Source of the DNA: Alphaproteobacteria bacterium
Lineage (GTDB): Bacteria; Pseudomonadota; Alphaproteobacteria; RF32; CAG-239
NCBI GenBank assembly: GCA_045593845.1
Contig: JAZNXK010000004.1
Location: 78,296 to 142,295 of the forward strand
Direction of reading: 5' to 3'
DNA length: 64,000 bases
Below the pieces are notes generated by a model, which saw only the letters and a list, made by a program, of their open reading frames with translations, did not search any database and was not told the DNA's origin. Positions 5,271-59,372 of this stretch are shown piece after piece (position 1 is the stretch's first letter; each line of letters opens with the position of its first letter). The translations under genes were made by a program, and so were the position numbers.

Positions 5271-5344
5271 TGGCTGCTTCACCTGGATTCGAACCAAGAT
5301 TAACGGAGTCAGAGTCCGCTGTCCTACCATTAGACGATGAAGCA
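5271..5344 (-). tRNA. tRNA-Gln (anticodon CUG)
   Basis: Manual cloverleaf: acceptor TGCTTCA/TGAAGCA with U1-A72, T-arm CCTGG-TTCGAAT-CCAGG, anticodon loop CTCTGAC, encoded CCA end. Confidence 0.85.
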
Positions 5345-31651: not shown

Positions 31652-32008
31652 TTACAGCAACCCTAGCCATCCCACATATAAGGGAAATAAAAATACTAAC
31701 TTAGCTAATCTGGGGTGATTTTTCATATTACTTGTTGCAATCAGAAAAAATAATGCAGAAATAATCAAACTATATTTACAACTTTGCATATACAGTTGTT
31801 GATTTTGGTAATTCCATGCCCCATTTGTAGCTTCACTTCCCCAAATCATATCGTTTATCGCCGGCGGATTGAAATATTCTGACAGTAATAAGGCAAAAAA
31901 TGCCATATCCAAAATAACGAACCATTTAAACTGCCATAGAAGTTTAATGATTTCTGCTATGTTTTGCTTTATATTTTGCATAAATTGACCTACTTGTTCT
32001 CGAAACAT
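31652..32008 (-). CDS. 4-TM membrane protein, paralog of 32066..32437 (candidate immunity protein)
   Basis: Shared blocks with its neighbour: KLLW.FKW, GAWNY.NQ, TSNM.NHP.LA. Confidence 0.6.
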   Translation of the reverse strand: MFREQVGQFMQNIKQNIAEIIKLLWQFKWFVILDMAFFALLLSEYFNPPAINDMIWGSEATNGAWNYQNQQLYMQSCKYSLIISALFFLIATSNMKNHPRLAKLVFLFPLYVGWLGLL

Positions 32009-32065
32009 TGTTTTATTTTAAAGATTGTAACTATGATTAATATTACAACAACATAAAATATCATC

Positions 32066-32437
32066 TTAACTAACCAAAGCAAATAACCACTCACATATTA
32101 TAATAAATGTTCCCAACAACATAACTATCCACGGAGATGCAAATATAATCCTTGCCAACAATGGATGATTGCGCATATTACTGGTACCAATAAGAAATAT
32201 AAGAGTATCAATAATAAAATATAATTTCATACTGCCAATATATACTTCCTGATTGATATAATTCCATGCGCCGCGTACATATTCGTAATGGAATATCGGA
32301 TCATTCTCGGCAGGAATAGCTATTAAAGTATATCCTGAAATAACATAATATATCAAATACAGTCCAACATACCACTTAAACGACCACAAGAGTTTGAAGG
32401 TATCTGATATCGCTTGCTTTACTTTATCTTGAAACAT
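32066..32437 (-). CDS. 4-TM membrane protein (candidate immunity protein)
   Basis: Paralog of 31652..32008, directly downstream of the YkuD-like toxin remnant. Confidence 0.6.
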   Translation of the reverse strand: MFQDKVKQAISDTFKLLWSFKWYVGLYLIYYVISGYTLIAIPAENDPIFHYEYVRGAWNYINQEVYIGSMKLYFIIDTLIFLIGTSNMRNHPLLARIIFASPWIVMLLGTFIIICEWLFALVS

Positions 32438-32516: not shown

Positions 32517-32795
32517 TTACCATTCCTTCGGATATTTAACATATACCGGAACAGAATCTTGACAATCATCCAAGTAATTACTTAATTTTCCGGTTTGCCA
32601 CGGAATATCTATACATCCGGCTGAACCTTTACTCCAGCCGCCATGAATGAAAAATCCATTACGCTCATAAGTATTGGTCGCAAAGTTTGGTATTGCAACT
32701 CATCTTGAGCTGTAAATCCGCTTTGGTCAACACCATAGCTATCTATCTCCGTTTTGATACCCGAACGGTGATTGATATTTCCCGAAAAAATCCAT
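32517..32795 (-). pseudogene. degenerate modular toxin: N-module with a frameshifting deletion plus a C-terminal YkuD/Tlde1-like fragment
   Basis: ATG at 32795 gives MDFFGKYQSPFGYQNGDR-stop. A shifted frame gives DSYGVDQSGFTAQDELQYQTLR. A third frame gives NGFFIHGGWSKGSAGCIDIPW..VYVKYPKEW-stop. A minus-strand terminator follows at 32487-32511. Confidence 0.65.
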
Positions 32796-32870
32796 CTTAT
32801 TTTCTCCTTTCCGTAAAAAGACAAAAAAGAGCCGCTAAAAAAAATTCTCAACGGCTCCGCTCCAACGATA

Positions 32871-33689
32871 TTAGCTTGCACTTTCCGGCTTTGCTTTAAT
32901 AAAATAGTTTATTGCCTGATTTATCGGTGTAACATGTTGACTGTTACCATATATCGCACTTGTCGGCGCAACCGCCCCTGTTTTTCCCAAAGTAGGTGCC
33001 GTTGTTGTTCCGTTCAAGCGATAAGAAACAGCTGCCGTAGCACTTGATCCTCCTTCAACTGTCAAATAATTTGAAGCCGTCAAACTGACAAGGTTAGATC
33101 TTCCGTTTTCGTTTGCAGCCAAATAGTGATAGTGAGAAGGAACTGCCGGAATACCCTCTGCCTGCGTCGTATAAATATTTGCGGCCGAATTTCCGCCCAA
33201 ACCACGCAAAAACTTTCCTCTATAATCCGGCACATTAAAAGTTGTAACTCCGTTACCGCTGCCAAAATGAGTACCGATCAAAGCATACAAATCACTATAT
33301 GTCGTTCTGCTAACAGCTTGTCCGTTGCACAAAAGCCAATTACCATGATTTGCCGTTTTTACCGAGGCTTTTATATCTCCCACCGGCTGCAACAAATTCA
33401 AAACCTGCATAATTGCTTCATTAACCCCAACATTCAAGCTGTCCAATTGAGATTTATTTACGGCATCTCCCGACAAAACCCCGTTTGCCAAATTACACAC
33501 CCTGAAGCCGCCGGCATTAACATTTCCTTTCATCGGCACACGCCCGTCGCGCAAAAAAGTCTCATTTAAGGCCTGTGCAAAATTATCATCTTCTTCATCC
33601 GCATGGTCGGTAACAATATCTATATTGTTTATTCTATCCTGCTCCCAGTTATGCATTCTCGTAAATTTTCCTTGTGAATCAAAAGGCAT
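32871..33689 (-). CDS. tail fibre protein with phage tail-collar domain
   Basis: WLLCNGQAVSRTTYSDLYALIG..FNVPDYRGKFLRG is the tail-collar signature. Start at MPFDSQGKF has an AGGAGA RBS. Confidence 0.8.
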   Translation of the reverse strand: MPFDSQGKFTRMHNWEQDRINNIDIVTDHADEEDDNFAQALNETFLRDGRVPMKGNVNAGGFRVCNLANGVLSGDAVNKSQLDSLNVGVNEAIMQVLNLLQPVGDIKASVKTANHGNWLLCNGQAVSRTTYSDLYALIGTHFGSGNGVTTFNVPDYRGKFLRGLGGNSAANIYTTQAEGIPAVPSHYHYLAANENGRSNLVSLTASNYLTVEGGSSATAAVSYRLNGTTTAPTLGKTGAVAPTSAIYGNSQHVTPINQAINYFIKAKPESAS

Positions 33690-33752
33690 TATTTTTCTCC
33701 TAAAAAAGTTATAAAAAAACGGCAAACCTTTTGCCGCACCAAAATTTATTTT

Positions 33753-34372: not shown

Positions 34373-34588
34373 TCATCGAAGAACCAATCCATACTGCGGA
34401 TAATCGTTTTGCGCAATCCCCTGCCGCGCCATATCATTTGCCAGCTCATTTTCTCTGCTTAATCGCAATGTTTGATATTGCAACTCATCTTGTGTTGAAA
34501 ATCCGCTATGGTCAACTCCATAGCTGTCAACCCCATTGTCACCGTTTTGATACCCGAACGGAGATTGATACTTCCCGAAAAAATCCAT
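34373..34588 (-). pseudogene. N-terminal-module-only stub of the modular toxin family (71 aa)
   Basis: MDFFGKYQ...YPQYG followed by LVLR-stop. There is no cargo domain. Confidence 0.7.
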
Positions 34589-34800: not shown

Positions 34801-35181
34801 TTATCTTTTAGGATAATATGTAGTAGAGATAAAATTCTTATCATCTTTCAGCGATGTTACAACTCTTAAATCTCCATTTTTACCCTGCGACATATAAACA
34901 TTTTGACCAAATTGATTTGTTTCTACAGGTTCTTGCTTAATTATTCCTGGTATCCTTTTGACATCACTTCTATTAACACCATGCTTATATATTCCCTTAT
35001 TCAAACCAAAATTTCTAACCGTTCCTGTTTCTCGCCCCAAAGCTTTTCCATGTACAATCACATTTCCGTCTTCCCCTGCTATTGCCTCTCCTCGTTGTAA
35101 CACGACAGGTTCTCCGTTATGGTTTTTCATTTTTGCAATTACATCTGTAGCATTACCTGCAACATAAAAAAATTCTGTCAT
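34801..35181 (-). CDS. stand-alone KHGV-type cargo domain (orphan cassette with its own RBS and ATG, 126 aa)
   Basis: Homologous to the C-terminal ~120 aa of 35357..36400. The first part includes a 96-nt identical tract. Confidence 0.65.
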   Translation of the reverse strand: MTEFFYVAGNATDVIAKMKNHNGEPVVLQRGEAIAGEDGNVIVHGKALGRETGTVRNFGLNKGIYKHGVNRSDVKRIPGIIKQEPVETNQFGQNVYMSQGKNGDLRVVTSLKDDKNFISTTYYPKR

Positions 35182-35356: not shown

Positions 35357-36400
35357 TTACTTTTCAGGAATATATTTATACATTGAAGATATAGTCCTAT
35401 AATCATCAATAGGAGTTGTAGACAACTTAATTTTTTCATTATTACCAAGAAATCTATAAATGTGTTGATTTCTATTATTTATTTCCAACGGTTCATTTTT
35501 AATATATCTTGGAATTTTTACAACTTCATCTCTTGGAACCCCATGTTTATAAATAATTTTATTTAGTCCATAGTTTCTAGCTGTTCCTGTCGCATGTTGC
35601 AAAGGTCTTCCGCTAACAATCACATTTCCGTCTTCCCCTGCTATTGCCTCTCCTCGTTGTAACACGACAGGTTCTCCGTTATGGTTTTTCATTTTTGCAA
35701 TTACATCTGTACCATTTCCCTCAAAAGGATTTTGGCTCAATTTATCATAAGCTCGCCCTATCTTATATCCTTGATACATCATATTTACAGGCTCATATGT
35801 TGCCGCGCCTATCGTTCCTCCGCTCAACATTCCTCCGCCAAATTCTGCAAGTTTTCCAGTTCCATCTGCTAATGTCCGACTATTTTCGTCCTTTAGATTA
35901 AGATAATCATTCATTTTTGTATCAACTCCGAGTTTATTGCCCAACCAGTCCAAACCTCCGAAAGTCATTCCATTTATGGCTCTGTTCATACCATATAATG
36001 TATCCATACCGCTCATCAACAAACCGTTTTCCATATTCCTATTTTGTTGCTGTGTAAACATATTGCTTTCCTGTTCTTGAGACTGTTGATTCTGTACTGG
36101 CATATTTCTTGCCAAGTTCAGCGCGTTTTGTACTGTCGGACTAAGCTTTGAAATATCATAATTCGTAGCATTTGAGAGATTACTACCCCAAAAATTTGCT
36201 CCATACTGCGGATAATTGTTTTGCGGAATTCCCTGCCGCGCCATATCATTTGCCAGCTCATTTTCTCTGCTTAATCGCAAAGTTTGGTATTGCAGCTCAT
36301 CTTGTGTTGAAAATCCGCTATGATCAACTCCATAGCTGTCAACTCCATTGTCACCGTTTTGATACCCGAACGGCGATTGATACTTTCCGAAAAAATCCAT
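35357..36400 (-). CDS. modular toxin-family protein: N-module plus Q/N-rich linker plus Gly-rich region plus KHGV-type C-terminal domain
   Basis: Full N-module and the ISKLSPTVQNALNLAR linker. Start placed at MDFFGKY (36400). Confidence 0.75.
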   Translation of the reverse strand: MDFFGKYQSPFGYQNGDNGVDSYGVDHSGFSTQDELQYQTLRLSRENELANDMARQGIPQNNYPQYGANFWGSNLSNATNYDISKLSPTVQNALNLARNMPVQNQQSQEQESNMFTQQQNRNMENGLLMSGMDTLYGMNRAINGMTFGGLDWLGNKLGVDTKMNDYLNLKDENSRTLADGTGKLAEFGGGMLSGGTIGAATYEPVNMMYQGYKIGRAYDKLSQNPFEGNGTDVIAKMKNHNGEPVVLQRGEAIAGEDGNVIVSGRPLQHATGTARNYGLNKIIYKHGVPRDEVVKIPRYIKNEPLEINNRNQHIYRFLGNNEKIKLSTTPIDDYRTISSMYKYIPEK

Positions 36401-36452
36401 CTTATTTTTCCCTTCCATAAAAAAAAGAGCCTTAAAAGCTCTTTAATGTATA

Positions 36453-36779
36453 TCAAAATGACTTAATAATCATTATCGTTTCGCTCGGATAATAAAGCAT
36501 AACCAAAACTTCCATAATGAGACAAGGTATTGTAATATATTGCAAGCGAAGTTTATCATCATGTATGCACACACTCCACTTTTTTTGTAACACATAACAC
36601 AAAAACAAAGGATGTACTACCCAGAAACATATATCAAAAATAAATAACACCGGAAAAAATGGTACATAAGCATGCAACCCTATCATAACAGAAAAAGCTA
36701 CAGCAACAAAAAAGGCTACTATAAAATCTAGTACTTTAATTATTGTTTTGTTTTCAGTTGTCTTATTTATATTGTACAT
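36453..36779 (-). CDS. 3-TM membrane protein (candidate immunity protein for 36791..37423)
   Basis: Lies immediately downstream of, and adjacent to, the cassette. Hydrophobic throughout. Confidence 0.55.
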   Translation of the reverse strand: MYNINKTTENKTIIKVLDFIVAFFVAVAFSVMIGLHAYVPFFPVLFIFDICFWVVHPLFLCYVLQKKWSVCIHDDKLRLQYITIPCLIMEVLVMLYYPSETIMIIKSF

Positions 36780-36790
36780 AAATAAACCAC

Positions 36791-37423
36791 TTACCAATCT
36801 TTATTATTCACAGCATCACTAATCTTGTTAGTAATATAATTAACACCTTGTGTCAACACTTTTCGCGTTCCAACACCTGCTCCCCTCGTAAGCGGTAATT
36901 GATTAATTTTCACGCCTACTGTATTTGCAATCCCATTAGCAATCAAATTCGTCCCGAAATCTTTCCAATTTTCGGCATATCCGGCAGAAGCAATACCGGT
37001 ATTTGCGACTGCATTAAGAGCATTATCCATTACTTTCGCACCCTTAAACAACCGCAGCGGCGACATCACTGCACCAGCAAATTCTGCCCCACCATATAAA
37101 TACGGATAGTTTGTGCTCAAGTTATTTTGCAATTGTCTGGCTACATCTCTACCTTTGGTATAGTTGTCGCTATTTCCTGTCAACAAAGCCGATACTCCTC
37201 CAAAAGTTTCATCAAAATTTCCTAACGTTAAACCTGTCGTATATCCAACCGCCGCTGCTTGCGTTGCATCAGCAAAATTTTCTCCCCAATTTTTTACCGT
37301 ATTCCAAGTATTATTTTGCTGTTCTTGCGGCTGGCGGCTTTCTGCCGGAAACTTTCTTGCTAAATTAAGTGCATTTTGCACTGTCGGACTAATACTCGCA
37401 ATATCAATCCCGCCTCCTCTCAA
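36791..37423 (-). CDS. orphan cargo cassette starting at the conserved linker (LRGGGIDIASISPTVQNALNLAR), Gly-rich C-terminal domain
   Basis: No N-module. There is an in-frame stop 11 codons upstream, and only a TTG start at the linker. Confidence 0.55.
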   Translation of the reverse strand: MRGGGIDIASISPTVQNALNLARKFPAESRQPQEQQNNTWNTVKNWGENFADATQAAAVGYTTGLTLGNFDETFGGVSALLTGNSDNYTKGRDVARQLQNNLSTNYPYLYGGAEFAGAVMSPLRLFKGAKVMDNALNAVANTGIASAGYAENWKDFGTNLIANGIANTVGVKINQLPLTRGAGVGTRKVLTQGVNYITNKISDAVNNKDW

Positions 37424-37496: not shown

Positions 37497-37979
37497 TTAA
37501 TCCACCGGTGTTATATTGTAGAGAAATATCAAATATAACATCAAGATTATAATTGGTATTGCAATTATTGCATAAAAAACTTGCAAAAATCTGAAAAAAT
37601 AATACAAAATTTTATTTTTATTCTCAAATAAATAGCTATTCCACAAGTAGAGAATAGCAAAAAAGAATAACAATCTGTTAAATATAATCAATATGAGTGT
37701 AAACAAATCAATTTCTGTTGCATTGTTTATTAAGCCTCCCATTTCTAAAAAGATATTTATTCCAAAAGAAGATAAGATAAAAAATATCGAAAATAAAATA
37801 TTAAAGCAAAAATTTTTATAATCACTATAATTTATCCAATATCCGAACCATATCTTTTGAAATAATAGTGGAACAATTATTCCTACATATACAACCTCTT
37901 CTATAAAACCGACAAAAGCAAAAGGCTCAATTAGAATTGTTAAAAATAAAAGTAAAGAAAGCAAATATTTAACAAACAC
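37497..37979 (-). CDS. 5-TM membrane protein (candidate immunity protein for 38063..38476)
   Basis: Very hydrophobic 160-aa ORF with a GTG start, downstream of the glycine-zipper toxin. Confidence 0.55.
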   Translation of the reverse strand: MFVKYLLSLLLFLTILIEPFAFVGFIEEVVYVGIIVPLLFQKIWFGYWINYSDYKNFCFNILFSIFFILSSFGINIFLEMGGLINNATEIDLFTLILIIFNRLLFFFAILYLWNSYLFENKNKILYYFFRFLQVFYAIIAIPIIILMLYLIFLYNITPVD

Positions 37980-38062: not shown

Positions 38063-38476
38063 TTATTTTTCAAATTTTATTGGATTACTTAATAATAAAT
38101 TGCAAGTTTCAGGAACATTATATCTACCAGCAATATATCCTGCCGTAGCTCCGATAAAATCATTTTTCAAATCTTTTTTAGCATCCCCGAGTACCCCTAA
38201 TATACCTCCATATGCCACCCTTTTTTGAGGATCAGCAATTTTATCTTTAGTATCTTGCATTTCTTTATACAACCCTCCTGCTAAAGTTTCTGCAGTAGCC
38301 AATAATCCATCTGTTGAGCCAATACAACTTACATACTGATGTTTATTCACATCCGATATATCAAATTGCAGCTCATCTTGTGTTGAAAATCCGCTATGAT
38401 CAACTCCATAGCTGTCAACTCCATTGTCACCGTTTTGATACCCGAACGGCGATTGATACTTTCCGAAAAAATCCAT
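38063..38476 (-). CDS. modular toxin-family protein: 36-aa N-module fused directly to a glycine-zipper-rich C-terminal domain (137 aa)
   Basis: MDFFGKY..STQDELQ followed by AGGLY..AYGGILGVLGDA..IGATAGYIAG. Confidence 0.7.
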   Translation of the reverse strand: MDFFGKYQSPFGYQNGDNGVDSYGVDHSGFSTQDELQFDISDVNKHQYVSCIGSTDGLLATAETLAGGLYKEMQDTKDKIADPQKRVAYGGILGVLGDAKKDLKNDFIGATAGYIAGRYNVPETCNLLLSNPIKFEK

Positions 38477-38554: not shown

Positions 38555-39004
38555 ATGAAGAAAATTTTAGTGCTTGTCATTTTACCTTTAATCTATTGCC
38601 TTAATGTTTCTGCTGCAGAAAAAAATATTGATATCCTTGAAAAGGAATTTATAGATTGCGCAGATAGTTGGGAAAAACATGAACAAAAATGTCCGGAATC
38701 ATGGAGTATGAAATGTTATAATCACTTAATGACTGCTCATAAAAATACTCAACAATGCTTTCAAAAAGTTGCAGTAAAATTGTTCACAAATTTCTACGAG
38801 TTATCTGAAAAAGAAGCAAATAAAAAGATTGATGATTTTCTCAAATTCACCTATGACCAATATTTCTTCATTTTTGCCGAAACCGATTTTTGCAAAAAGA
38901 ATAATTGCGGCCTCTCAATATATTTATATAGCGAATATGTAACCACTGACCAATTACGATATTATGTAAACAAAATAATTAGGTCTATATCTGCCAGAAA
39001 TTAA
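38555..39004 (+). CDS. secreted Cys-containing helical protein, possible LprI/DUF1311-like lysozyme inhibitor (candidate immunity protein)
   Basis: AAGGAG RBS and signal peptide ..LNVSA/AE. Convergent with the GH108 cargo gene, overlapping it by 4 nt. Confidence 0.6.
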   Translation: MKKILVLVILPLIYCLNVSAAEKNIDILEKEFIDCADSWEKHEQKCPESWSMKCYNHLMTAHKNTQQCFQKVAVKLFTNFYELSEKEANKKIDDFLKFTYDQYFFIFAETDFCKKNNCGLSIYLYSEYVTTDQLRYYVNKIIRSISARN

Positions 39005-39909
39005 TATTCATTATACCTTTTTCTGTGCCCTCTTTCAAATATTATTTGTGATGGGTCTTTTTTCAGATATTCATCTTCTGCTCGGTTTACATTATTTATA
39101 AAATCTGTTCTTATAGCTTTATAATTTGTATTTCTGACAGCTCCCAAAGTATCTGAACCTATTATACCATCTGCCTTAACTCCGAGAGCTTTTTGCAAAT
39201 TCATAATTGCTGTCGGTTGCCCTTGCACAACACCATCATCAAAAACTATACCTGCCAATTCGTCAGGAAGTTGATTTATTTTGGGTTTTAACCAATAATC
39301 TCGATAATATATTGCATCAGCTCTTTCTCTTGTCATATTTTCTATATCTTCATCCGGATAAATACGCGAACTTATACCATAATTTGTAGCTCCACCTCTA
39401 TCATTCGGATGATTAACATACCCGCCCTCATTTGCTCTGGTTCTATTCATTGCTTGTTGAAAGCGATTATCAGCTAACATTTGATCAATAAATGATTGAC
39501 TAAAATCATTTCCATACAAAGAATAATCAATATTAGCTTCTTGATTACCATCATTCATAACCGTCGACAATACATTTTGAGCATATTGAATAGCCGATTC
39601 ATTTGTTGGATTATTCTTTGCCAAATTTAATGCTGCTTGCACAGTCGGACTAATACTCGCAATATCAAGCCCGCCTCCGCGCAAACTTGCATTCTGCCAA
39701 AAGTTTGCTACATACTGCGGATAATCGCACTGCGCAATTCCCTGCCGCACCATATCATTTGCCAGCTCATTTTCTCTGTTTGTACGCAATGTTTGATATT
39801 GCAACTCATCTTGCGTTGAAAATCCGCTATGATCAACTCCATAACTGTCAACCCCATTGTCACCGTTTTGATACCCAAACGGCGATTGATATTTCCCGAA
39901 AAAATTCAT
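39001..39909 (-). CDS. modular toxin-family protein: N-module plus GH108 lysozyme plus peptidoglycan-binding domain
   Basis: EGGYVNHPNDRGGATNYGI is the GH108 signature. It is followed by a PG_binding_3-like LQKALGVKADGIIGSDTL. Confidence 0.8.
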   Translation of the reverse strand: MNFFGKYQSPFGYQNGDNGVDSYGVDHSGFSTQDELQYQTLRTNRENELANDMVRQGIAQCDYPQYVANFWQNASLRGGGLDIASISPTVQAALNLAKNNPTNESAIQYAQNVLSTVMNDGNQEANIDYSLYGNDFSQSFIDQMLADNRFQQAMNRTRANEGGYVNHPNDRGGATNYGISSRIYPDEDIENMTRERADAIYYRDYWLKPKINQLPDELAGIVFDDGVVQGQPTAIMNLQKALGVKADGIIGSDTLGAVRNTNYKAIRTDFINNVNRAEDEYLKKDPSQIIFERGHRKRYNEY

Positions 39910-40000
39910 CTTGTTTTCTCCTTTACATAAAAAAAAGAGCCATAACGGCTCCTGTAAAAAAATTTTGAAAATTTCAAGTAAACATAAACAACAAAAAATC

Positions 40001-40237
40001 CTAAAAAGGTAAACCTTTCTGCTTTTTCAAGATATTTTCTTTAGTTATAGGTACACATCCTATTTTTTCATCCCAAGTTAAACAATCTGATCGGCATATT
40101 TTTTGCTCAGGGTCATAAATTTTTCCCCCATCAAGGCAAACCATTTTCATATCTAGTTCAAAATAACAATAAATAGCAATTATCATAATTACAAAAAAAC
40201 AAACCAGATATTTTATAATTTTTTTAATACTTTTCAT
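40001..40237 (-). CDS. membrane-anchored Cys-rich small protein (candidate immunity protein for the SAA-like cargo)
   Basis: N-terminal TM plus CLDGGKIYDPEQKICRSDCLTWDEKIGCV. Overlaps the upstream gene by 14 nt. Homologues lie at 56346..56528 and 56476..56874. Confidence 0.65.
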   Translation of the reverse strand: MKSIKKIIKYLVCFFVIMIIAIYCYFELDMKMVCLDGGKIYDPEQKICRSDCLTWDEKIGCVPITKENILKKQKGLPF

Positions 40238-40907
40238 TAATGCCCTCCACTCTCTGATAACGACAGGCTTCTTTAGAGTCAGAATAAAAAGGATTATCCA
40301 CTAATTCTCTCGCCTGAAAATTTACATCCCTATCATGCCAATAATCAGCCAAAGCATCAGGATACGACATTCCTTTGTAATATCTATTCTTGAAATAGTC
40401 AAATACTTCTTTTTCATTTCCTAAAACTTTCGCTGCTAGTTTACCATACATTCCTCTTTGTGCAGCCTCATAATTGCCTTTACAATGAAAATAATCATCT
40501 CCACCAATAGTATTGTCAGATTTCATATCAAAATAATTGCGCACCATATCCATGGTACCACCAAGAACTTGTCGCATTGGAGATTGCTGAGTTTGTTGTT
40601 GTGCAGGCAAACTTCTTGCTAAATTCAGTGCTGCTTGCACTGTCGGGCTCAACCTTGAAATATCATAATTTGTTCCATTTGACAAATTATTACCCCAAAA
40701 ACCCGTGCCATACTGCGGATAATCGCACTGCGCAATCCCCTGCCGCGCCATATCATTTGCCAGCTCATTTTCTCTGCTTAATCGCAAATTTTGATATTGC
40801 AGCTCATCTTGTGTTGAAAATCCGCTATGATCAACTCCATAGCTGTCAACTCCGTTATCTCCGTTTTGATACCCGAACGGTGATTGATACTTTCCGAAAA
40901 AATCCAT
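40224..40907 (-). CDS. modular toxin-family protein: N-module plus serum-amyloid-A-like C-terminal domain
   Basis: DDYFHCKGNYEAAQRG aligns with the vertebrate SAA core [16 protein letters not shown]. The gene starts 12 nt after the endolysin stop. Confidence 0.75.
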   Translation of the reverse strand: MDFFGKYQSPFGYQNGDNGVDSYGVDHSGFSTQDELQYQNLRLSRENELANDMARQGIAQCDYPQYGTGFWGNNLSNGTNYDISRLSPTVQAALNLARSLPAQQQTQQSPMRQVLGGTMDMVRNYFDMKSDNTIGGDDYFHCKGNYEAAQRGMYGKLAAKVLGNEKEVFDYFKNRYYKGMSYPDALADYWHDRDVNFQARELVDNPFYSDSKEACRYQRVEGINEKY

Positions 40908-40919
40908 CTTATTTCCCTC

Positions 40920-41354
40920 TCATTTTATATCATTATAAAAAAAATGTCCTTTTGTTTCATAACAAGGAGCATGATGCAAAGCCCACTTCGGTTTTATATT
41001 TTTGGTATGATAAAAAGTAGCATTATTGGTAAAATCCGTCATTTTACCCGCAATCGCCTTTTTTGCCACATTCAAACATCTGACAAAACTTGCATCATTT
41101 TCATCAACTCGCAAAAGTTTTTGATAATTAGGATCATTTTTATTCCAGCAGCTAAATTGAAATCTCTTTTGACATGTCTCCCTGATTCCGGCAATTTTGA
41201 CACCGTTTTCCATTTTGTAACCGGTAAACCATTTTTTTGCCCTAAATCTGTTCATTATAACGCAAGCAACCGCCTCAATTCCCTCCAAACCATCACCTCT
41301 GGCCTCACCCCACAAGGTTTGTGCCAAAACCCAAACATCATCATCTCGCAGCAT
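40920..41354 (-). CDS. endolysin, SleB/CwlJ-type cell-wall hydrolase (Hydrolase_2)
   Basis: LAQTLWGEARGDGLEGIEAVACVIMNR motif. Confidence 0.8.
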   Translation of the reverse strand: MLRDDDVWVLAQTLWGEARGDGLEGIEAVACVIMNRFRAKKWFTGYKMENGVKIAGIRETCQKRFQFSCWNKNDPNYQKLLRVDENDASFVRCLNVAKKAIAGKMTDFTNNATFYHTKNIKPKWALHHAPCYETKGHFFYNDIK

Positions 41355-41628
41355 TTTTACCTGCCTTATTTTTGCAGTTTAGTAACAAATCCAACTTTCC
41401 CTCAAAACTGTCAAATTTACTCTCAAGTTTTGCCAACATAATATTTTGCTGATTTTGCATAACAATAATTGAGGCCGTTTCTTTATCTGTCTTATCAATT
41501 CGCAGCAAAACCCCGCAAATTTTCTCCTCCATACACCCTTTCCATGCCCCGATTTTTATCAGGTTCAAAATCATCCCTGCCAGAGCGGTAATTCCTGCCG
41601 CACCGCCAACCAAATTTATCAGTTCCAT
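41341..41628 (-). CDS. small N-terminal-TM protein, possible holin
   Basis: A single TM (GGAAGITALAGMILNLI) followed by a charged coiled tail. Overlaps the endolysin start. Confidence 0.45.
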   Translation of the reverse strand: MELINLVGGAAGITALAGMILNLIKIGAWKGCMEEKICGVLLRIDKTDKETASIIVMQNQQNIMLAKLESKFDSFEGKLDLLLNCKNKAGKNAAR

Positions 41629-46899: not shown

Positions 46900-47334
46900 T
46901 CATACAAATTTACAATCCTCGCGCAACATCCCCAAGACAAAGGCATCTTTGCCATCGGGATAATAAGCACGCATTTTTCCCTCTTTCACAAAGCCGCATC
47001 TCATAGCCAACGATACAGAAGCTTTATTATCCTCACAAATAAGCGCATTAATTCTTCTGCATTTCAAAGCATTAAAAGCCACACCGAAAATTTGGCGCAA
47101 AACTTTTGCCGTGCACCATTTTTTATCCCAAGTGCAAATACTTATCCATGCAGAATCATTTTCGCGATAATCACTATACGCAACCATCCCCAGACACTTA
47201 TCTTCTCGCAAAATCTCAAAAACAAATCCTTGAACAAACTCCATTTCATCCAAATTAAGCTTTTGCGCAATCTGTCTGGCAGCGGCCATACCTGTTTTAT
47301 AAACAATCTCAACCAAGTCCTTCTCCTTGTTCAA
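46900..47334 (-). CDS. GNAT-family N-acetyltransferase
   Basis: RimJ/L-like pattern (..NKASVSLAMRCGFVKEG..). Confidence 0.7.
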   Translation of the reverse strand: MNKEKDLVEIVYKTGMAAARQIAQKLNLDEMEFVQGFVFEILREDKCLGMVAYSDYRENDSAWISICTWDKKWCTAKVLRQIFGVAFNALKCRRINALICEDNKASVSLAMRCGFVKEGKMRAYYPDGKDAFVLGMLREDCKFV

Positions 47335-48856
47335 AGCGCAAACCGGTATTATACCACTCTATTGCGGTGCCGCTTGTCTTGGTCCTAAAAACAACAGAAG
47401 CCTTAAAACCAAGCGCATTATTACCGATCCACTGGCTTTGAATTTTAGTTTTCAAACTTCCCCATTTTGTTCCTATCGGTTGCGCCAGACAGCTCCACTT
47501 GCTGAAATTCCACCTGCTGCCGCTTGCACTTCCGATATTTTCGGCATATTCTTTATCTTGATCATCAAAATCCATATTGGTATAGATATTTAATGCAAAA
47601 GACGTATTGCTTTTTATCCTGGGGTTTAACATCAAAATTTTCTTAAAACTTGCACTACCCAAAGCACAATATGCCTGATGCACAGAGCCGGCAATCGGCA
47701 TACCGTCATCCGATTGTCCTTCATCAAACAAATAAACTCCGCTTTCCGAACCAAAAAACAAGCGACCTTCAAACAAACACCAACACAATGAGTTAATTCC
47801 CACAAAACGGCACCAAGCACCGGAACTCATATTGATTACATGTTGCTCAAACTGCGCTCCGATAGGCACATTAAAAAGTGCATATCCTCCTCGCGGATAA
47901 ATAATTCCCTGCCAACCGAATAAATTTTTTCCGTTTTTAACTCGGCTCAAAAACAGGCCTCTTATCTTGTCACTGTAAGCAACGGAATTTACATTACTGC
48001 CGGCAAGTTTCAGCACCGCACTCAACGGCAAATATCCTTCTTCGCAAATCAGAACTATGTCGCCTTGATATTGCAAAACGCAGTTATCTCCGATAGGCCG
48101 GCTGACAAAATATTTTCCGCGCATTTTCCAATCATCAGGGTCAGAAGGATTACTGCCGGAATAAACCAATACTTCACCTTCCGAGGTTATAAAAACCGTC
48201 AAATCATCAATTCCCTGTCCCCCATCCAAAGTCCAAGAAGCAATTGCTGCCAAATATCCGCCTTTGGTGGTCAAAAATGATAAATCAACTTTGTTTAACG
48301 TGCCTTGAACCTCACCAACTCCATCCGCATACCAATAGCAAAGAGAATTTTTCTCCACATAGAAGACTCTTTGTTTTGAGATAGTCGGCTTACATAAATG
48401 CTTTTTTACCAATTCTGTTCCGCTCAAAACTGTATCTTCCCAAACAAATACCCCCTGCCCGTTTTCATAATAGGAAAGCGGATTATCAACCCCGTTGGCA
48501 AGCAACAATCTATCTCTGAATTGCACATATTGCCAAACATTGCAATCCAGTTCATCAACCATAACATCATCAGAACCGCTGGTCACATCAATAATTTTAC
48601 CGGCAGTTGCTGCAAACAAACGACTATGTTGCGGATTGCAAAATTTTATCAAAGTTTCAATACTTGTATCTGCATCTTGTAAGGCATAGGCCTTATATCC
48701 GTTTCGAAGACAAACACTGCTTTCCGAAGGATAATAATTATCCATTAAAATTGCATCCGTATCTTCCATGGCATCAATACTGTCACGCATATTAAGCCCG
48801 CCAATCGGCGATGGCAAAATATAGTTAATTGAGCGATTAACATTCCTTCTTAACAT
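47309..48856 (-). CDS. large tail/nozzle-type structural protein (515 aa)
   Basis: Its position between the head-completion genes and the fibres. No motif recognised. Confidence 0.5.
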   Translation of the reverse strand: MLRRNVNRSINYILPSPIGGLNMRDSIDAMEDTDAILMDNYYPSESSVCLRNGYKAYALQDADTSIETLIKFCNPQHSRLFAATAGKIIDVTSGSDDVMVDELDCNVWQYVQFRDRLLLANGVDNPLSYYENGQGVFVWEDTVLSGTELVKKHLCKPTISKQRVFYVEKNSLCYWYADGVGEVQGTLNKVDLSFLTTKGGYLAAIASWTLDGGQGIDDLTVFITSEGEVLVYSGSNPSDPDDWKMRGKYFVSRPIGDNCVLQYQGDIVLICEEGYLPLSAVLKLAGSNVNSVAYSDKIRGLFLSRVKNGKNLFGWQGIIYPRGGYALFNVPIGAQFEQHVINMSSGAWCRFVGINSLCWCLFEGRLFFGSESGVYLFDEGQSDDGMPIAGSVHQAYCALGSASFKKILMLNPRIKSNTSFALNIYTNMDFDDQDKEYAENIGSASGSRWNFSKWSCLAQPIGTKWGSLKTKIQSQWIGNNALGFKASVVFRTKTSGTAIEWYNTGLRFEQGEGLG

Positions 48857-56076: not shown

Positions 56077-56153
56077 AAAAAAAGAGCCACAAAGGCTCTA
56101 TCAGTAAATAAACTTTTTATTAGACGCCGTCTGCACGCCACATCAAGCCTGCC

Positions 56154-56282
56154 TCAGCGCAAACCTGCATATTGCAGTTCATCCTGTATTGAAAATCCGC
56201 TATGGTCAACTCCATAGCTGTCAACTCCGTTATCCCCGTTCTCATACCCGAATGGCGATTGATATTTCCCGAAAAAATTCAT
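56154..56282 (-). pseudogene. N-module stub (42 codons) ending at an in-frame TGA inside the linker
   Basis: MNFFGKYQSPFGYENGDNGVDSYGVDHSGFSIQDELQYAGLR-stop, followed by remnants of GRLDVA. Confidence 0.65.
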
Positions 56283-56345
56283 CTCCTTCTCCCACAAAAA
56301 AAGGAGCCTCAAATGCTCCTGCAAAAAATCCCGTAATTCAAACCA

Positions 56346-56528
56346 CTAAAAAGGCAAACCTTGTTGCTTCTTAAAGATATTTTCTTTAGTTATAGGTACA
56401 CATCCTATTTTTTCATCCCATGTTAGACAATCCGAACGGCATATTTTTTGCTCCGGATCATAAATTTCTCCGCCATCAAGACAAACCATTTTCATTACAA
56501 ACATCAGGATAAATCCAGTCTTTTCCAT
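56346..56528 (-). pseudogene. N-terminally truncated copy of the Cys-rich immunity-like gene 40001..40237
   Basis: About 88% nucleotide identity by eye to 40001-40150. The TM anchor is missing. Confidence 0.55.
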
Positions 56529-56874
56529 GTTTATAGCATTTATCTAAAGTAAATTCTGCATCACATTCGCCGGTTGTTGGATTAAATGGTAAGTTATTTT
56601 GCATGCAAATAGCTATTATAACATCATTAGAAATACATCCTACTGGTTTATGACGACACTTTTCAAACAATTTAACTTGGTCATATGTCATCATAACACA
56701 ACCGTTAATTTTATTCCATACCAAACAGTCATCACGGCAACGTTTTTCTTTATAATCCCAAACATTACCGGCATCCAAACAACTGTTTTGCATAAGAAAA
56801 ACAAAGCATTTCCAAGCAACAAAACATAAAATTACCAAGAAAATAGTAATTCTTATAGCCTTCAAATTACGCAT
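56476..56874 (-). CDS. membrane-anchored Cys-rich protein (candidate immunity protein, 132 aa)
   Basis: N-terminal TM. CLDAGNVWDYKEKRCRDDCLVWNKINGCV is homologous to 40001..40237. Lies directly downstream of the SAA-like cargo. Confidence 0.65.
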   Translation of the reverse strand: MRNLKAIRITIFLVILCFVAWKCFVFLMQNSCLDAGNVWDYKEKRCRDDCLVWNKINGCVMMTYDQVKLFEKCRHKPVGCISNDVIIAICMQNNLPFNPTTGECDAEFTLDKCYKHGKDWIYPDVCNENGLS

Positions 56875-56886
56875 AATATCCTCACT

Positions 56887-57463
56887 CTACCAATACTCTT
56901 TAGGAAACGCCGGATTTTTTGTTCGATAATCCGCACATGCTTCTTCAGCATTATCGTACAGTCCGGAATCTCCACGCAACCGTCCCACAATATTCACATT
57001 CAAATCATGTGCTTTATCATCTTGAGCTTCTTCCTCGCTTTTCCTTTTGTATGCCTGATTCCAATAAAAGTCAAATTTTTCTTTTGCATCACCAAGCATT
57101 TTAGCAGTATTATACCCTAATGGACCGCGTGATGCTGCATTGTAATTAGCCTTACAATGATGGTAATCATCTAAATTTTTATAATTATGCTTTTTCATCT
57201 TAAAATATTCAGACACCATATCTTTTGTTGCACCAACAATTTGTTGAAGTGGAGATTGCTGGTTCTGCTGAATTTGCTCAGGCATATTTCTAACAAAATT
57301 GAGAGCATTTTGCACAGTCGGACTTATACTCGCCACATCAAGCCTGCCTTCGCGCATACCCGCATTGCGTTGAAAATCCGCTATGATCAACTCCATAGCT
57401 GTCAACTCCGTTATCCCCGCTCATATACCCGAATGGCGATTGATATTTCCCGAAAAAATCCAT
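56887..57463 (-). pseudogene. frameshifted modular toxin gene: N-module (33 aa) out of frame with linker plus SAA-like domain
   Basis: Frame 1 gives MDFFGKYQSPFGYMSGDNGVDSYGVDHSGFSTQ then a stop. The next frame gives ..NAGMREGRLDVASISPTVQNAL..DDYHHCKANYNAASRGP..FPKEYW. An internal ATG at MREGRL is possible. Confidence 0.65.
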
Positions 57464-57659
57464 CTCCTTCTCCCACAAAAAAAGGAGCCTAAAAGCTCCC
57501 ATCAAAAATTCAAACCAAACAACCTTATCACGCAAAAAAACAAGAGGCGGCATCTCATCGACCCACCTCTCGCATTATGGAAAAAAATATAACACAGAAT
57601 GACAGAAAAGTCAATTTTAGATTGTTCACCCTGTGGATAACTTTTTTACCTCCCTTATT

Positions 57660-58544: not shown

Positions 58545-58700
58545 ATTAGCACCTCCATACAAAAAATACATTTACTGTATTTTAAGTCAATACATTTTTT
58601 GTAACAATGTGGATTTTTTGCTATATTTGCAACATTGGCTTGATTTTATGATAAAATTATTATATCAATAAATTAGAGTATTACATATTTGGTAAAAAAC

Positions 58701-59372
58701 ATGAATGAACAAAAATGGAAATGGCTTCGCGATTATATGCAGAAGCATGGCATAAATCAGCAACAGGTTGCCGAGGCTTTACAATGGAAAAAACCTAGAG
58801 TTTCGGAACTTTTGGCCGGAAAAAGAGACCTCCCTGTCACCAAAGTTTTTTTGGCGGCACGTTTTTTTAACCTCGACCTTGAAGAACTGACAAAATACAA
58901 TACAGGTCTTTCAAACAAGGTTCCTTCTTACAAAGGACAACTTCCGGCACATAACAAAACAAACGATATTTCATATATTGATGTCATAGATTCGGCAAAT
59001 ATCAAGGGAAAATCGTTAAAAAATACCGTTATTGACCAAGTTCCATTCAGTAACGCACTTGCCAAACAACTAAATCTGCCGAGCACACTATCCCTAAAAA
59101 TCATTATCGCCAGCGGAGATGCCATGAGCCCGACAATCAATGACCGCGATATAGTATTGGTTGACACCTCGGTAAACACACCGCAAAATAACGGATTATA
59201 TCTGTTCAATATCCAAGATGAATTGTTTATCAAACGATTATCACTGGATAAGTTTTCCGGCAGTGCTGATATCATTTCGGACAATAAACTCTACCCCATA
59301 ATCAAGATAAACAACATCAAAAAACTTTCCTGTCTTGGCAAAATAGTTTACGTTTGCAAACATTTTGCATGA
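58701..59372 (+). CDS. CI/LexA-like repressor (HTH plus S24 peptidase-like domain)
   Basis: N-terminal XRE HTH (INQQQVAEALQWKKPRVSELLAGKR). The C-terminal S24 fold carries ..GDAMSPTI.. and ..LFIKRL.. Confidence 0.8.
   Translation: MNEQKWKWLRDYMQKHGINQQQVAEALQWKKPRVSELLAGKRDLPVTKVFLAARFFNLDLEELTKYNTGLSNKVPSYKGQLPAHNKTNDISYIDVIDSANIKGKSLKNTVIDQVPFSNALAKQLNLPSTLSLKIIIASGDAMSPTINDRDIVLVDTSVNTPQNNGLYLFNIQDELFIKRLSLDKFSGSADIISDNKLYPIIKINNIKKLSCLGKIVYVCKHFA

Follow-up and report, generated by a model that had tools for sequence, protein, structure and literature searches.

What is a domain resembling vertebrate serum amyloid A (SAA) doing behind the lysis genes of a bacterial prophage-type element, and what is the small cysteine-containing membrane protein encoded right after it? 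The locus lies in a 64,000-nt stretch of contig JAZNXK010000004.1 (positions 78,296 to 142,295 of assembly GCA_045593845.1, an alphaproteobacterium of group CAG-239), which is called the window below and whose own numbering is used throughout. The gene of interest, 40224..40907, and its small neighbour 40001..40237 are both on the minus strand. We find that the C-terminal domain of the 40224..40907 product is a true relative of animal SAA, and that the two genes probably form a toxin-immunity pair of the polymorphic-toxin type, in which a trafficking N-terminal domain (N-domain), a disordered linker and a prok-SAA domain would make up a toxin that acts in the periplasm and is released in connection with lysis. 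This kind of toxin-immunity system has already been described on computational grounds, and the window locus is a further, unusually clear example; what remains new is the unnamed N-domain, its envelope-only cargo set and the prophage lysis-cassette context.

A striking idea, published in 2025, traces animal SAA back to bacterial toxin domains that have a four-cysteine immunity protein of their own. Burroughs, Nicastro and Aravind (eLife 2025; preprint January 2025; PMC12419801) defined the Lipocone superfamily, whose members include Wnt, SAA, TelC, VanZ and phosphatidylserine synthases, and reported the animal SAA family as derived from the bacterial one. The ancestral Lipocone pocket consists of a His in helix H2, a Glu in H3 and an Asp in H4, to which the SAA-Wnt clade adds an sNxxGR motif; prok-SAA is a toxin tip of polymorphic toxins, and its cleavage or transfer of lipid head groups is predicted only (PMC12419801). 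The immunity protein coupled to Min-Wnt and prok-SAA is membrane-anchored and has an alpha-helix, four beta-strands and four absolutely conserved cysteines, an arrangement labelled ‘TM+Imm-SAA’; the network file of that study has Prok-SAA upstream of Imm-SAA 75 times, with RHS 17, MuF 14 and Imm-SAA itself 10 times, and no other named upstream contexts (PMC12419801). Previously, in 2020, an SAA motif was noted at PAAR-Rhs tips of enterohaemorrhagic E. coli.

The C-terminal domain belongs to the SAA family

A first-pass annotation of the window had aligned by eye the C-terminal halves of two open reading frames (ORFs), 40224..40907 and 56887..57405 (minus strand), with vertebrate SAA. Both were matched by the Pfam SAA profile PF00277, whose curated cut-off is 30.8 bits: E=3e-20 and 72.9 bits over residues 110-191 of the first, and E=4e-18 and 66 bits over residues 53-149 of the second. 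In phmmer searches of PDB sequences, both retrieved vertebrate SAA chains only (best E=1.4e-12 and 2.9e-10). An AlphaFold2 model of 40224..40907, built on 20 homologues, had a pLDDT of 84-96 over the SAA part, which is composed of helices at residues 110-130, 137-149, 153-177 and 182-202 and a short fifth helix at 211-214. When this model was compared with the PDB by Foldseek, it was superposed on seven SAA1/SAA3 chains (E<=1.1e-3, TM-score 0.80-0.87 on the target, rmsd 2.4-3.2 Å, 30-33% identity), the structures including 4ip8, 4q5g, 6pxz and 6py0, and no non-SAA fold was significant, the next match having E=2.5. Thus, the supposed likeness to the SAA four-helix bundle was borne out by the predicted fold, and for SAA1 and SAA3 only.

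Within the 20-homologue alignment D137, H141, N145, G152, D192 and N196 are invariant, while conservation is almost complete at E167, D170, R200, C142 and C215 (90% or more for E167 and R200). H141, E167 and D192 of the window protein map to the Lipocone H2 His, H3 Glu and H4 Asp, and N196..R200 to sNxxGR. These pocket positions are kept, which points to an enzyme on lipid-linked head groups; judged from its residues, the SAA domain is more likely such an enzyme than a pore.

The partners are membrane-anchored four-cysteine proteins

Each SAA ORF is followed by a small gene, 40001..40237, which overlaps the toxin gene by 14 nt, and 56476..56874, whose start lies 12 nt beyond the second SAA ORF. 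Behind a hydrophobic N-terminal helix the two products have a common motif, C-L-D-x-G..(Y/W)D..C-R-x-D-C-L..G-C, and in an alignment of 23 sequences of both types C34, L35, D42, C48, R49, D51, C52, L53, G60 and C61 are invariant. The description of these partners as proteins with an N-terminal transmembrane (TM) segment and a cysteine motif therefore holds well beyond the window, all four cysteines (C34, C48, C52 and C61) being kept in 23/23 sequences, and the third partner ORF, 56346..56528, was rightly recognised as truncated (Table 1). AlphaFold2 modelled 40001..40237 with a pLDDT of 88 as a hydrophobic helix at 2-36 behind a Lys-rich N-terminus, strands at 40-42, 47-49, 52-56 and 60-63, and then a short helix. 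The 78-aa partner had no fold match in the PDB, and the partners fell in no Pfam or NCBIfam family. They share with Imm-SAA the membrane anchor, the helix with four strands, the four conserved cysteines and the place directly 3′ of a prok-SAA gene, which was seen in the window and in 11 related loci.

SAA subtypes and downstream families are strictly paired

To follow the pairing further, profiles of the SAA domain and of the four-Cys partner were built, and every SAA gene of 87 related loci (L numbers below) was inspected. Seven SAA subtypes were found, each with one downstream family, and there were 0 exceptions among 33 pairs. SAA domains with the tail ..GINEKY are followed by the short four-Cys protein of 78-88 aa (4 loci and the window), those with ..FPKKYW by the long four-Cys protein of 132-140 aa (7 loci and the window), those with ..IVKKYIDK by a 170-aa multi-TM family (3 loci), those with ..RYI(N/D)QYYK by a 152-aa multi-TM family (3 loci) and those with ..PDDY.DIF by a 123-aa multi-TM family (2 loci), while the tails ..QRYI.K.. 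and ..NMRK.. share one family of small TM proteins with two or three cysteines (13 loci). For the most part each locus comes from a different species representative, although an identical protein is encoded on three of the ..GINEKY contigs. Pairing of subtype and partner without exception is the pattern expected of cognate toxin-immunity pairs, and as a comparison of sequences it supports that relationship; the co-variation which the first-pass annotation had noticed at two loci has thus been carried to 33 pairs. The window is an independent, clean example of the published system, with two SAA and two immunity subtypes in one genome and strict pairing across species, and a convenient locus for a first experimental test of a prok-SAA toxin.

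We also considered that the partner might be a spanin or an antiholin. This assignment was rejected, for the partner is present in non-phage loci and pairs by subtype.

The N-domain defines a family of predicted envelope-directed toxins

The less expected result is on the delivery side: the unnamed N-domain marks out a lineage-restricted family of predicted toxins, found in uncultured gut Alphaproteobacteria. Among 1.84 billion representative proteins searched, 193 clusters (50% identity) carried it, always at the extreme N-terminus, and roughly 250 genomes have it. It spans ~70-95 residues with the consensus MDFFGKYxSPFGY..DSYGVDHSGFS..DELxYQ..RE..YPQYG.NFWG, and 14 positions were invariant in a sample of 21 sequences; AlphaFold2 gave a moderately confident extended segment and one helix, followed by a disordered linker. 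No match was obtained in Pfam, PHROGs or NCBIfam or by profile search of the PDB, and the domain corresponds to no recognised trafficking domain (PAAR, RHS, LXG, MuF, CdiA etc.). The family otherwise has the traits of polymorphic toxins, that is, a constant N-terminus with variable C-terminal tips from at least nine cargo families, adjacent immunity genes and orphan modules. Identity of the N-domain with the ‘broken-hairpin’ domain of PMC12419801 was considered and rejected, the broken-hairpin domain being C-terminal and without immunity genes.

Cargos were assigned among 105 longer members as GH108 (12), Tlde1 (6), SAA (4), VgrG3-like C-terminus (3), pesticin (3), YkuD (2), SLT (2), GH46 (1) and phage lysozyme (1). 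Over half of these proteins lacked a Pfam match; the cargos that could be recognised are all directed at peptidoglycan or the envelope, with no nuclease or other cytoplasm-acting toxin identified in this set. A strongly hydrophobic segment (a 17-residue window with mean Kyte-Doolittle hydropathy >=1.8) was present in 61/75 of the 3′ neighbours of full-length toxins compared with 42% of control ORFs, and several of the remaining neighbours have signal- or lipoprotein-like N-termini. The same segment was found in 0/80 of the toxins. Because the cargos are envelope-directed, the 3′ neighbours hydrophobic and the toxins not, the family gives the impression of soluble toxins working outside the cytoplasmic membrane and opposed by partners in the membrane or periplasm.

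When 1436 neighbour ORFs were clustered, the resulting families comprised only small proteins of the membrane or secreted type, apart from one unannotated cytoplasmic family of 155 aa; the large neighbours checked were housekeeping genes or an adhesin, and the window flank is housekeeping. No secretion gene (VgrG, Hcp, PAAR or adaptor) was seen among the recurrent neighbours of the 87 loci, the window flanks or the large neighbours checked, a survey that was non-exhaustive and not of whole genomes. The ~155-aa helical family is encoded just upstream of N-domain toxin genes in 19 loci (e.g. L012:9364-9888, L013:9425-9901, L015:4014-4475, L001:8290-8757 and L073:9111-9887) and is not in the window; its best Pfam match (E=0.009) is below threshold and at chance level, and it may be a regulator or accessory factor.

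The putative toxin gene stands behind the lysis genes of an Mx8-like element

From ~59.4 kb down to ~31.5 kb of the window, the minus strand is occupied by a block of phage-type genes. After an S24/HTH (helix-turn-helix) repressor gene and two small genes come small terminase (terS), large terminase, portal, an SU10/Mx8-type capsid protein and tail proteins, among them an S74 chaperone protein and an F5/8-type-C fibre, and then a holin-like ORF followed by a Hydrolase_2 endolysin. With its counterpart in Myxococcus phage Mx8 the capsid protein shares 49% identity, and short-tailed phages of Brucella and Bradyrhizobium also match it. The flanks of the block are chromosomal, with ExbB and ExbD on one side and Band_7/NfeD, lipid A synthesis and other housekeeping genes on the other. 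Because lipopolysaccharide synthesis genes are present, the host is a diderm with an outer membrane; it belongs to a group of uncultured rumen and gut Alphaproteobacteria, and the nearest assembly is a metagenome-assembled genome from yak rumen.

The ATG of the SAA toxin gene is placed 12 nt past the endolysin stop codon. The order holin-like gene, endolysin, toxin, immunity gene and terminator is found both in the window and in locus L004. The holin-like ORF had no match in family searches; L004 has a 95-aa ORF ahead of its Hydrolase_2 gene, and a tblastn search with the window holin-like protein gave a match in L004. No spanin gene was recognised beside the lysis genes in the window.

The Mx8-like element occupies the same chromosomal site, between ExbB/ExbD and Band_7/NfeD, in the window and in two other assemblies; it was seen in L004, L005, L008 and L009, with toxin arrays at either of two alternative positions, after the lysis genes or in the interval between the repressor region and terS. 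Integrase and replication genes were not seen in the element within the window (~31500-59400), and it may be a domesticated or defective prophage. A phage tail collar and YadA-stalk protein (32871-33725, minus strand) lies at the far end of the array, parted by it from the tail genes, and the same placement is seen at L004:13177-13995. A 515-aa protein of the structural module (47309-48856, minus strand) matched a PHROG labelled ‘amidase’ with E=7e-70 and contains no Pfam domain, and this label may be unreliable.

Phages of the window lineage repeatedly pick up SAA modules. A second, different N-terminal region (..GK.PVKR.NP..G.S.YYY..) is carried by SAA toxins at L096:10368-12356 (an IMG/VR contig), in L097 and at L047:8814-9911. 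In two viral contigs an SAA protein of this sort, 389 aa long, is encoded within the structural module together with a multi-TM partner of 244 aa whose tail is Cys-rich, the pair being placed between a homologue of the 515-aa protein and an acetyltransferase. Another IMG/VR contig (L089:671-1242) has, just upstream of the terminase gene terL, what is left of an SAA tail (51 aa) and a long four-Cys immunity gene that is intact, an indication that phages of this lineage can harbour orphan immunity genes.

Proposed mechanism

We propose that the SAA toxin would reach the periplasm of a competing, closely related bacterium, where its His-Glu-Asp pocket would cut the head group off a lipid-linked envelope precursor; by analogy with TelC, the likely target would be lipid II or another undecaprenyl-linked intermediate. 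The 78-aa protein, held by one inner-membrane helix, would expose a disulfide-stabilised periplasmic domain able to bind and inhibit the cognate toxin. Homology of the pocket and location of the partner point to cleavage in the periplasm and to a block by the four-Cys protein at the same place. As to release, the toxin gene follows closely on the endolysin gene and the unit is ended by a hairpin, so synthesis with the late genes and release on lysis is the simplest reading: the toxin would be made together with the prophage late proteins and freed when an induced cell lyses, while lysogens with immunity genes would survive. The N-domain may then mediate the crossing of the target outer membrane, as in colicin M, pesticin and the pectocins. 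Such self-mediated uptake after lysis is possible, and we hold to it tentatively.

Several points weigh against this interpretation. No prok-SAA toxin or Imm-SAA protein has been experimentally tested, according to PMC12419801. In the window protein A199 replaces the Gly of sNxxGR; the SAA domain of the second locus has VNIVGR at this site. Membership of the partners in Imm-SAA rests on common features, the comparison with the published family being by description only. Promoter-like sites were no commoner than in shuffled sequence, and no convincing constitutive immunity promoter was found among them. A TonB or Tol box was not established in the N-domain, so that its part in uptake is an analogy; short stretches of the domain resemble the TolB/TonB box regions of colicins, but these resemblances are too short to test and are not relied on. 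Moreover, ~72 of 80 N-domain loci in species-representative genomes have no homologue of a window phage gene within 10 kb and stand in ordinary chromosomal, housekeeping surroundings, and lysis by the window prophage is therefore not the general release route of the family. The N-domain was also present in none of 2.9 million IMG/VR contigs, though the phage lineage is present there, and a search of INPHARED gave a single weak 5-kb record.

Alternative explanations

In place of uptake, the N-domain might be the recognition tag of some export system of the producer. In its strongest form this alternative holds that the toxins are secreted in a contact-dependent manner, e.g. by a type VI secretion system (T6SS), that the N-domain is a loading marker like MIX, FIX or RIX, and that the position behind the prophage lysis genes is incidental. 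The N-domain is highly conserved from residue 1 and many paralogues occur per genome, as is typical of domains that fit producer machinery; Tlde1 and VgrG3-like C-terminal cargos are known from T6SS effectors, and most N-domain loci are chromosomal rather than in phages. However, the non-exhaustive neighbourhood survey described above met no VgrG, Hcp, PAAR or adaptor gene, and no cytoplasm-acting cargo was recognised, which is unusual for a T6SS marker family. We regard export by the producer as unlikely. A further possibility is that the N-domain loads toxins into the phage particle, following the logic of MuF fusions, and that they are injected into the periplasm at adsorption. MuF-linked prok-SAA toxins are published (PMC12419801), arrays lie inside the Mx8-like element in the window, L004, L005, L008 and L009, and the SAA pair within the structural module of a related viral contig would fit as well; yet that viral SAA protein has a different N-terminus, the window toxins have no MuF match, within 10 kb of ~90% of the N-domain loci there is no phage gene, and the absence of the N-domain from IMG/VR, in the presence of the phage lineage, is difficult to reconcile with packaging. 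Hence, we consider loading into particles improbable.

The pair stands directly after holin-like and endolysin genes with no recognised spanin genes, and the SAA protein could therefore be thought of as an accessory lysis or entry factor acting on the envelope of the phage's own host, with the small membrane protein as an antiholin- or spanin-like regulator. This is very improbable in our judgement, because SAA-partner pairs occur in many non-phage loci, the arrays are polymorphic and contain orphan modules and orphan partners, and subtype-specific pairing is expected for immunity and not for the regulation of lysis. Vertebrate SAA has been reported to form channels and to bind Gram-negative outer membranes, and the first-pass annotation had accordingly thought a membrane-directed activity conceivable. 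The corresponding alternative, that the SAA domain kills through membrane channels or amyloid-like disruption and not as an enzyme, draws on the binding of human SAA to E. coli OmpA (PMC12419801), but it is hardly credible in view of the lack of a hydrophobic segment in any of the 80 toxins, of the invariant polar pocket residues, which match a catalytic site conserved across the superfamily, and of TelC, the one characterised toxin of the superfamily, being an enzyme. Channel activity is thus not favoured.

Returning to periplasmic action with release on lysis, a broader scheme may be drawn for the whole family, though we think it rather doubtful. The ~90-residue N-domain would be an undescribed, self-sufficient trafficking module of uncultured gut and rumen Alphaproteobacteria, with periplasm-acting cargos only, and in the window lineage the Mx8-like prophage would have captured arrays of such toxins behind its lysis genes, so that induction doubles as bacteriocin release. 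The arrays are able to ride on a prophage beside its lysis genes. If capture by the prophage were true, induction would kill non-lysogenic relatives, and the carried immunity genes, orphan ones included, would shield lysogens; should the N-domain turn out to serve import through the outer membrane, or to be a secretion tag of a new kind, it would offer a useful handle on competition among poorly known gut Alphaproteobacteria.

Comparison with known systems

The window locus agrees with the prok-SAA/TM+Imm-SAA system of PMC12419801 in toxin family, pocket, sNxxGR motif, immunity architecture and the order of toxin and immunity gene. The two window SAA domains have counterparts at 54% and 64% identity in the Prok-SAA file of that study, whose entry MBE6454550.1 is 96% identical to the SAA domain of P0010, an N-domain protein. 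Whereas the published prok-SAA toxins are T6SS, RHS, MuF or PGBD fusions, the window toxin has the N-domain and a position after holin and endolysin genes; the N-domain is not named in the text or the examined supplements of PMC12419801, and that position is undescribed there. MuF-fused toxins of temperate phages are similar as phage-borne polymorphic toxins with immunity genes, and MuF-prok-SAA combinations are on record (PMC12419801), but the window toxins have no MuF domain and most members of the N-domain family are not in phages.

The mechanistic template is TelC-TipC of the same superfamily. TelC of Streptococcus intermedius, the only characterised Lipocone toxin, is active solely outside the cytoplasm, where it cuts lipid II at the undecaprenyl carrier and is blocked by TipC. 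In contrast to the window toxin, TelC belongs to a different Lipocone family and is exported through its LXG domain by a type VII secretion system of a Gram-positive host, and TipC has an unrelated fold. For delivery, the nearest parallels are colicin M/Cmi, pesticin/Pim and the pectocins, which combine an uptake module with a periplasmic domain degrading lipid II or peptidoglycan and have periplasmic or membrane-anchored immunity proteins; in pectocins a single small uptake domain delivers ColM-like or pesticin-like cargo. A pesticin-like domain is likewise among the N-domain cargos, but the N-domain has no detectable homology to colicin, pesticin or ferredoxin uptake domains, and there is no homology between the SAA domain and the catalytic domain of ColM. 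Bacteriocin genes also travel in tailocin or prophage clusters whose lysis cassette frees their products; Pseudomonas tailocin clusters carry colicin M-like and lectin-like bacteriocins as cargo, comparable to the window array after the holin-endolysin pair and to the second array site between the repressor region and terS; unlike a headless tailocin, the window element has a full Mx8-type head, portal and terminase module, and its cargo is a multi-gene polymorphic array. Lastly, the window domains are like vertebrate SAA in sequence and fold, and the bacterial proteins differ from it by the trafficking domain, the two nearly invariant cysteines C142 and C215 and the linked immunity gene.

The second locus and the paralogue array

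The first-pass annotation had taken 56887..57405 as a second SAA cargo gene. Its SAA domain is confirmed, and the gene is a frameshifted remnant: three-frame translation placed the true start at the N-domain ATG at 57463, and DNA alignment to intact paralogues showed a ~120-nt internal deletion that shifts the frame after residue 33. Because of this deletion and frameshift, the ORF does not represent an intact gene, and by its sequence the SAA part is a decayed or orphan module. The second locus is a graveyard of modules that holds one intact orphan immunity gene, 56476..56874. At the equivalent site of L005, between the repressor region and terS, there is a live array of four toxin-partner pairs.

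Altogether the window holds at least nine full or partial copies of the N-terminal module (MDFFGKYQSPFGYQNGDNGVDSYGVDHSGFSTQDELQYQ...), joined to different C-termini (Table 1). The intact SAA gene heads the array of paralogues that lies behind the lysis genes. A gene on the opposite strand follows each GH108 toxin in L005, L006 and L047; the GH108 partners of L006, L044 and L047 form one cluster (family 4), and the window gene 38555..39004 is likened to them by position only. At 31652-32437 (minus strand), beside an N-domain fragment, lie the tandem genes of two paralogous membrane proteins of ~120 aa, whose homologues (family 8 of the clustering) come after N-domain toxins in L059 and L025, and they are probably further orphan immunity genes.

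Table 1. Positions of toxin, partner, lysis and related features in the window
Feature	Position	Strand	Remarks
S24/HTH repressor	58689-59372	+	Head of the phage block; two small genes next
Decayed second SAA toxin gene	56887..57463	-	N-domain residues 1-33, deletion and frameshift, complete type-2 SAA domain in other frame
Long-type Imm-SAA-like immunity gene (putative), 132 aa, intact	56476..56874	-	Four-Cys core and Cys-rich C-terminal extension
Short-type immunity gene remnant	56346..56528	-	No membrane helix; DNA 91% identical to 40001-40150
N-domain fragment	56154..56282	-	~42 aa, then stop
Holin-like small protein	41341..41628	-	By position and single N-terminal hydrophobic segment
Endolysin (Hydrolase_2, SleB-like)	40920..41354	-	Pfam PF07486 E=7e-14; PHROG lysis families; directly upstream of SAA toxin
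Intact SAA toxin gene (putative), 227 aa	40224..40907	-	N-domain, linker and SAA/Lipocone toxin domain
Conserved N-terminal domain	40692-40907	-	Residues 1-72 of 40224..40907
Low-confidence linker	40587-40691	-	Residues 73-107 of 40224..40907
SAA/Lipocone toxin domain	40227-40586	-	Residues 108-227 of 40224..40907
Short-type Imm-SAA-like immunity candidate, 78 aa	40001..40237	-	N-terminal membrane helix and periplasmic four-Cys domain (predicted)
Terminator-like hairpin and T-run	39935..39953	-	Closes holin-endolysin-toxin-immunity unit; directly upstream of next toxin gene
Paralogous toxin, N-domain with GH108 muramidase and PG_binding_3	39001..39909	-	Pfam PF05838 E=3e-23
Secreted Cys-containing protein, candidate immunity	38555..39004	+	Signal-peptide-like N-terminus; convergent with GH108 toxin gene
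Paralogous toxin, shortened N-domain, unknown C-terminal domain	38063..38476	-	C-terminus is that of 287-aa P0015
Multi-TM ORF	37497..37979		After 38063..38476
Paralogue with N-terminal truncation, unknown cargo	36791..37423	-	Matches C-terminus of P0042
TM ORF	36453..36797		After 36791..37423
Paralogous toxin, 353 aa, unknown cargo	35357..36418	-	
Orphan copy of C-terminal domain	34801..35181		Domain of 35357..36418
N-domain fragment	34373..34588	-	
Further N-domain fragment	32687-32795		
Hairpins upstream of N-domain genes or terS	39935-39953, 36424-36444, 32828-32858, 57483-57500, 56302-56320, 56083-56099	-	

Hairpins upstream of the toxin genes

Most N-domain toxin genes, and terS as well, have a terminator-like hairpin with a T-run 15-25 nt ahead of the start codon. 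Such hairpins were also seen in L005, L006, L010, L011, L020, L021, L027, L030, L044, L047, L049, L059 and others, and in other species a T-run was present at the upstream site in 77/118 N-domain genes. The stems vary by clade (GGAGCC/GGCTCC, AACGCCTTGGGC/GCCCAAGGCGTT and GAGTCAT/ATGGCTC) and the position is constant. In the 32.0-41.8 kb region we counted 17 terminator-like sites versus 5.3 ± 2.5 in shuffled sequence. The upstream hairpin could be the terminator of the preceding cassette, which moves with the mobile unit, or a control point for read-through or antitermination. The sole Rfam match in the window was one tRNA at 5274-5344 (minus strand).

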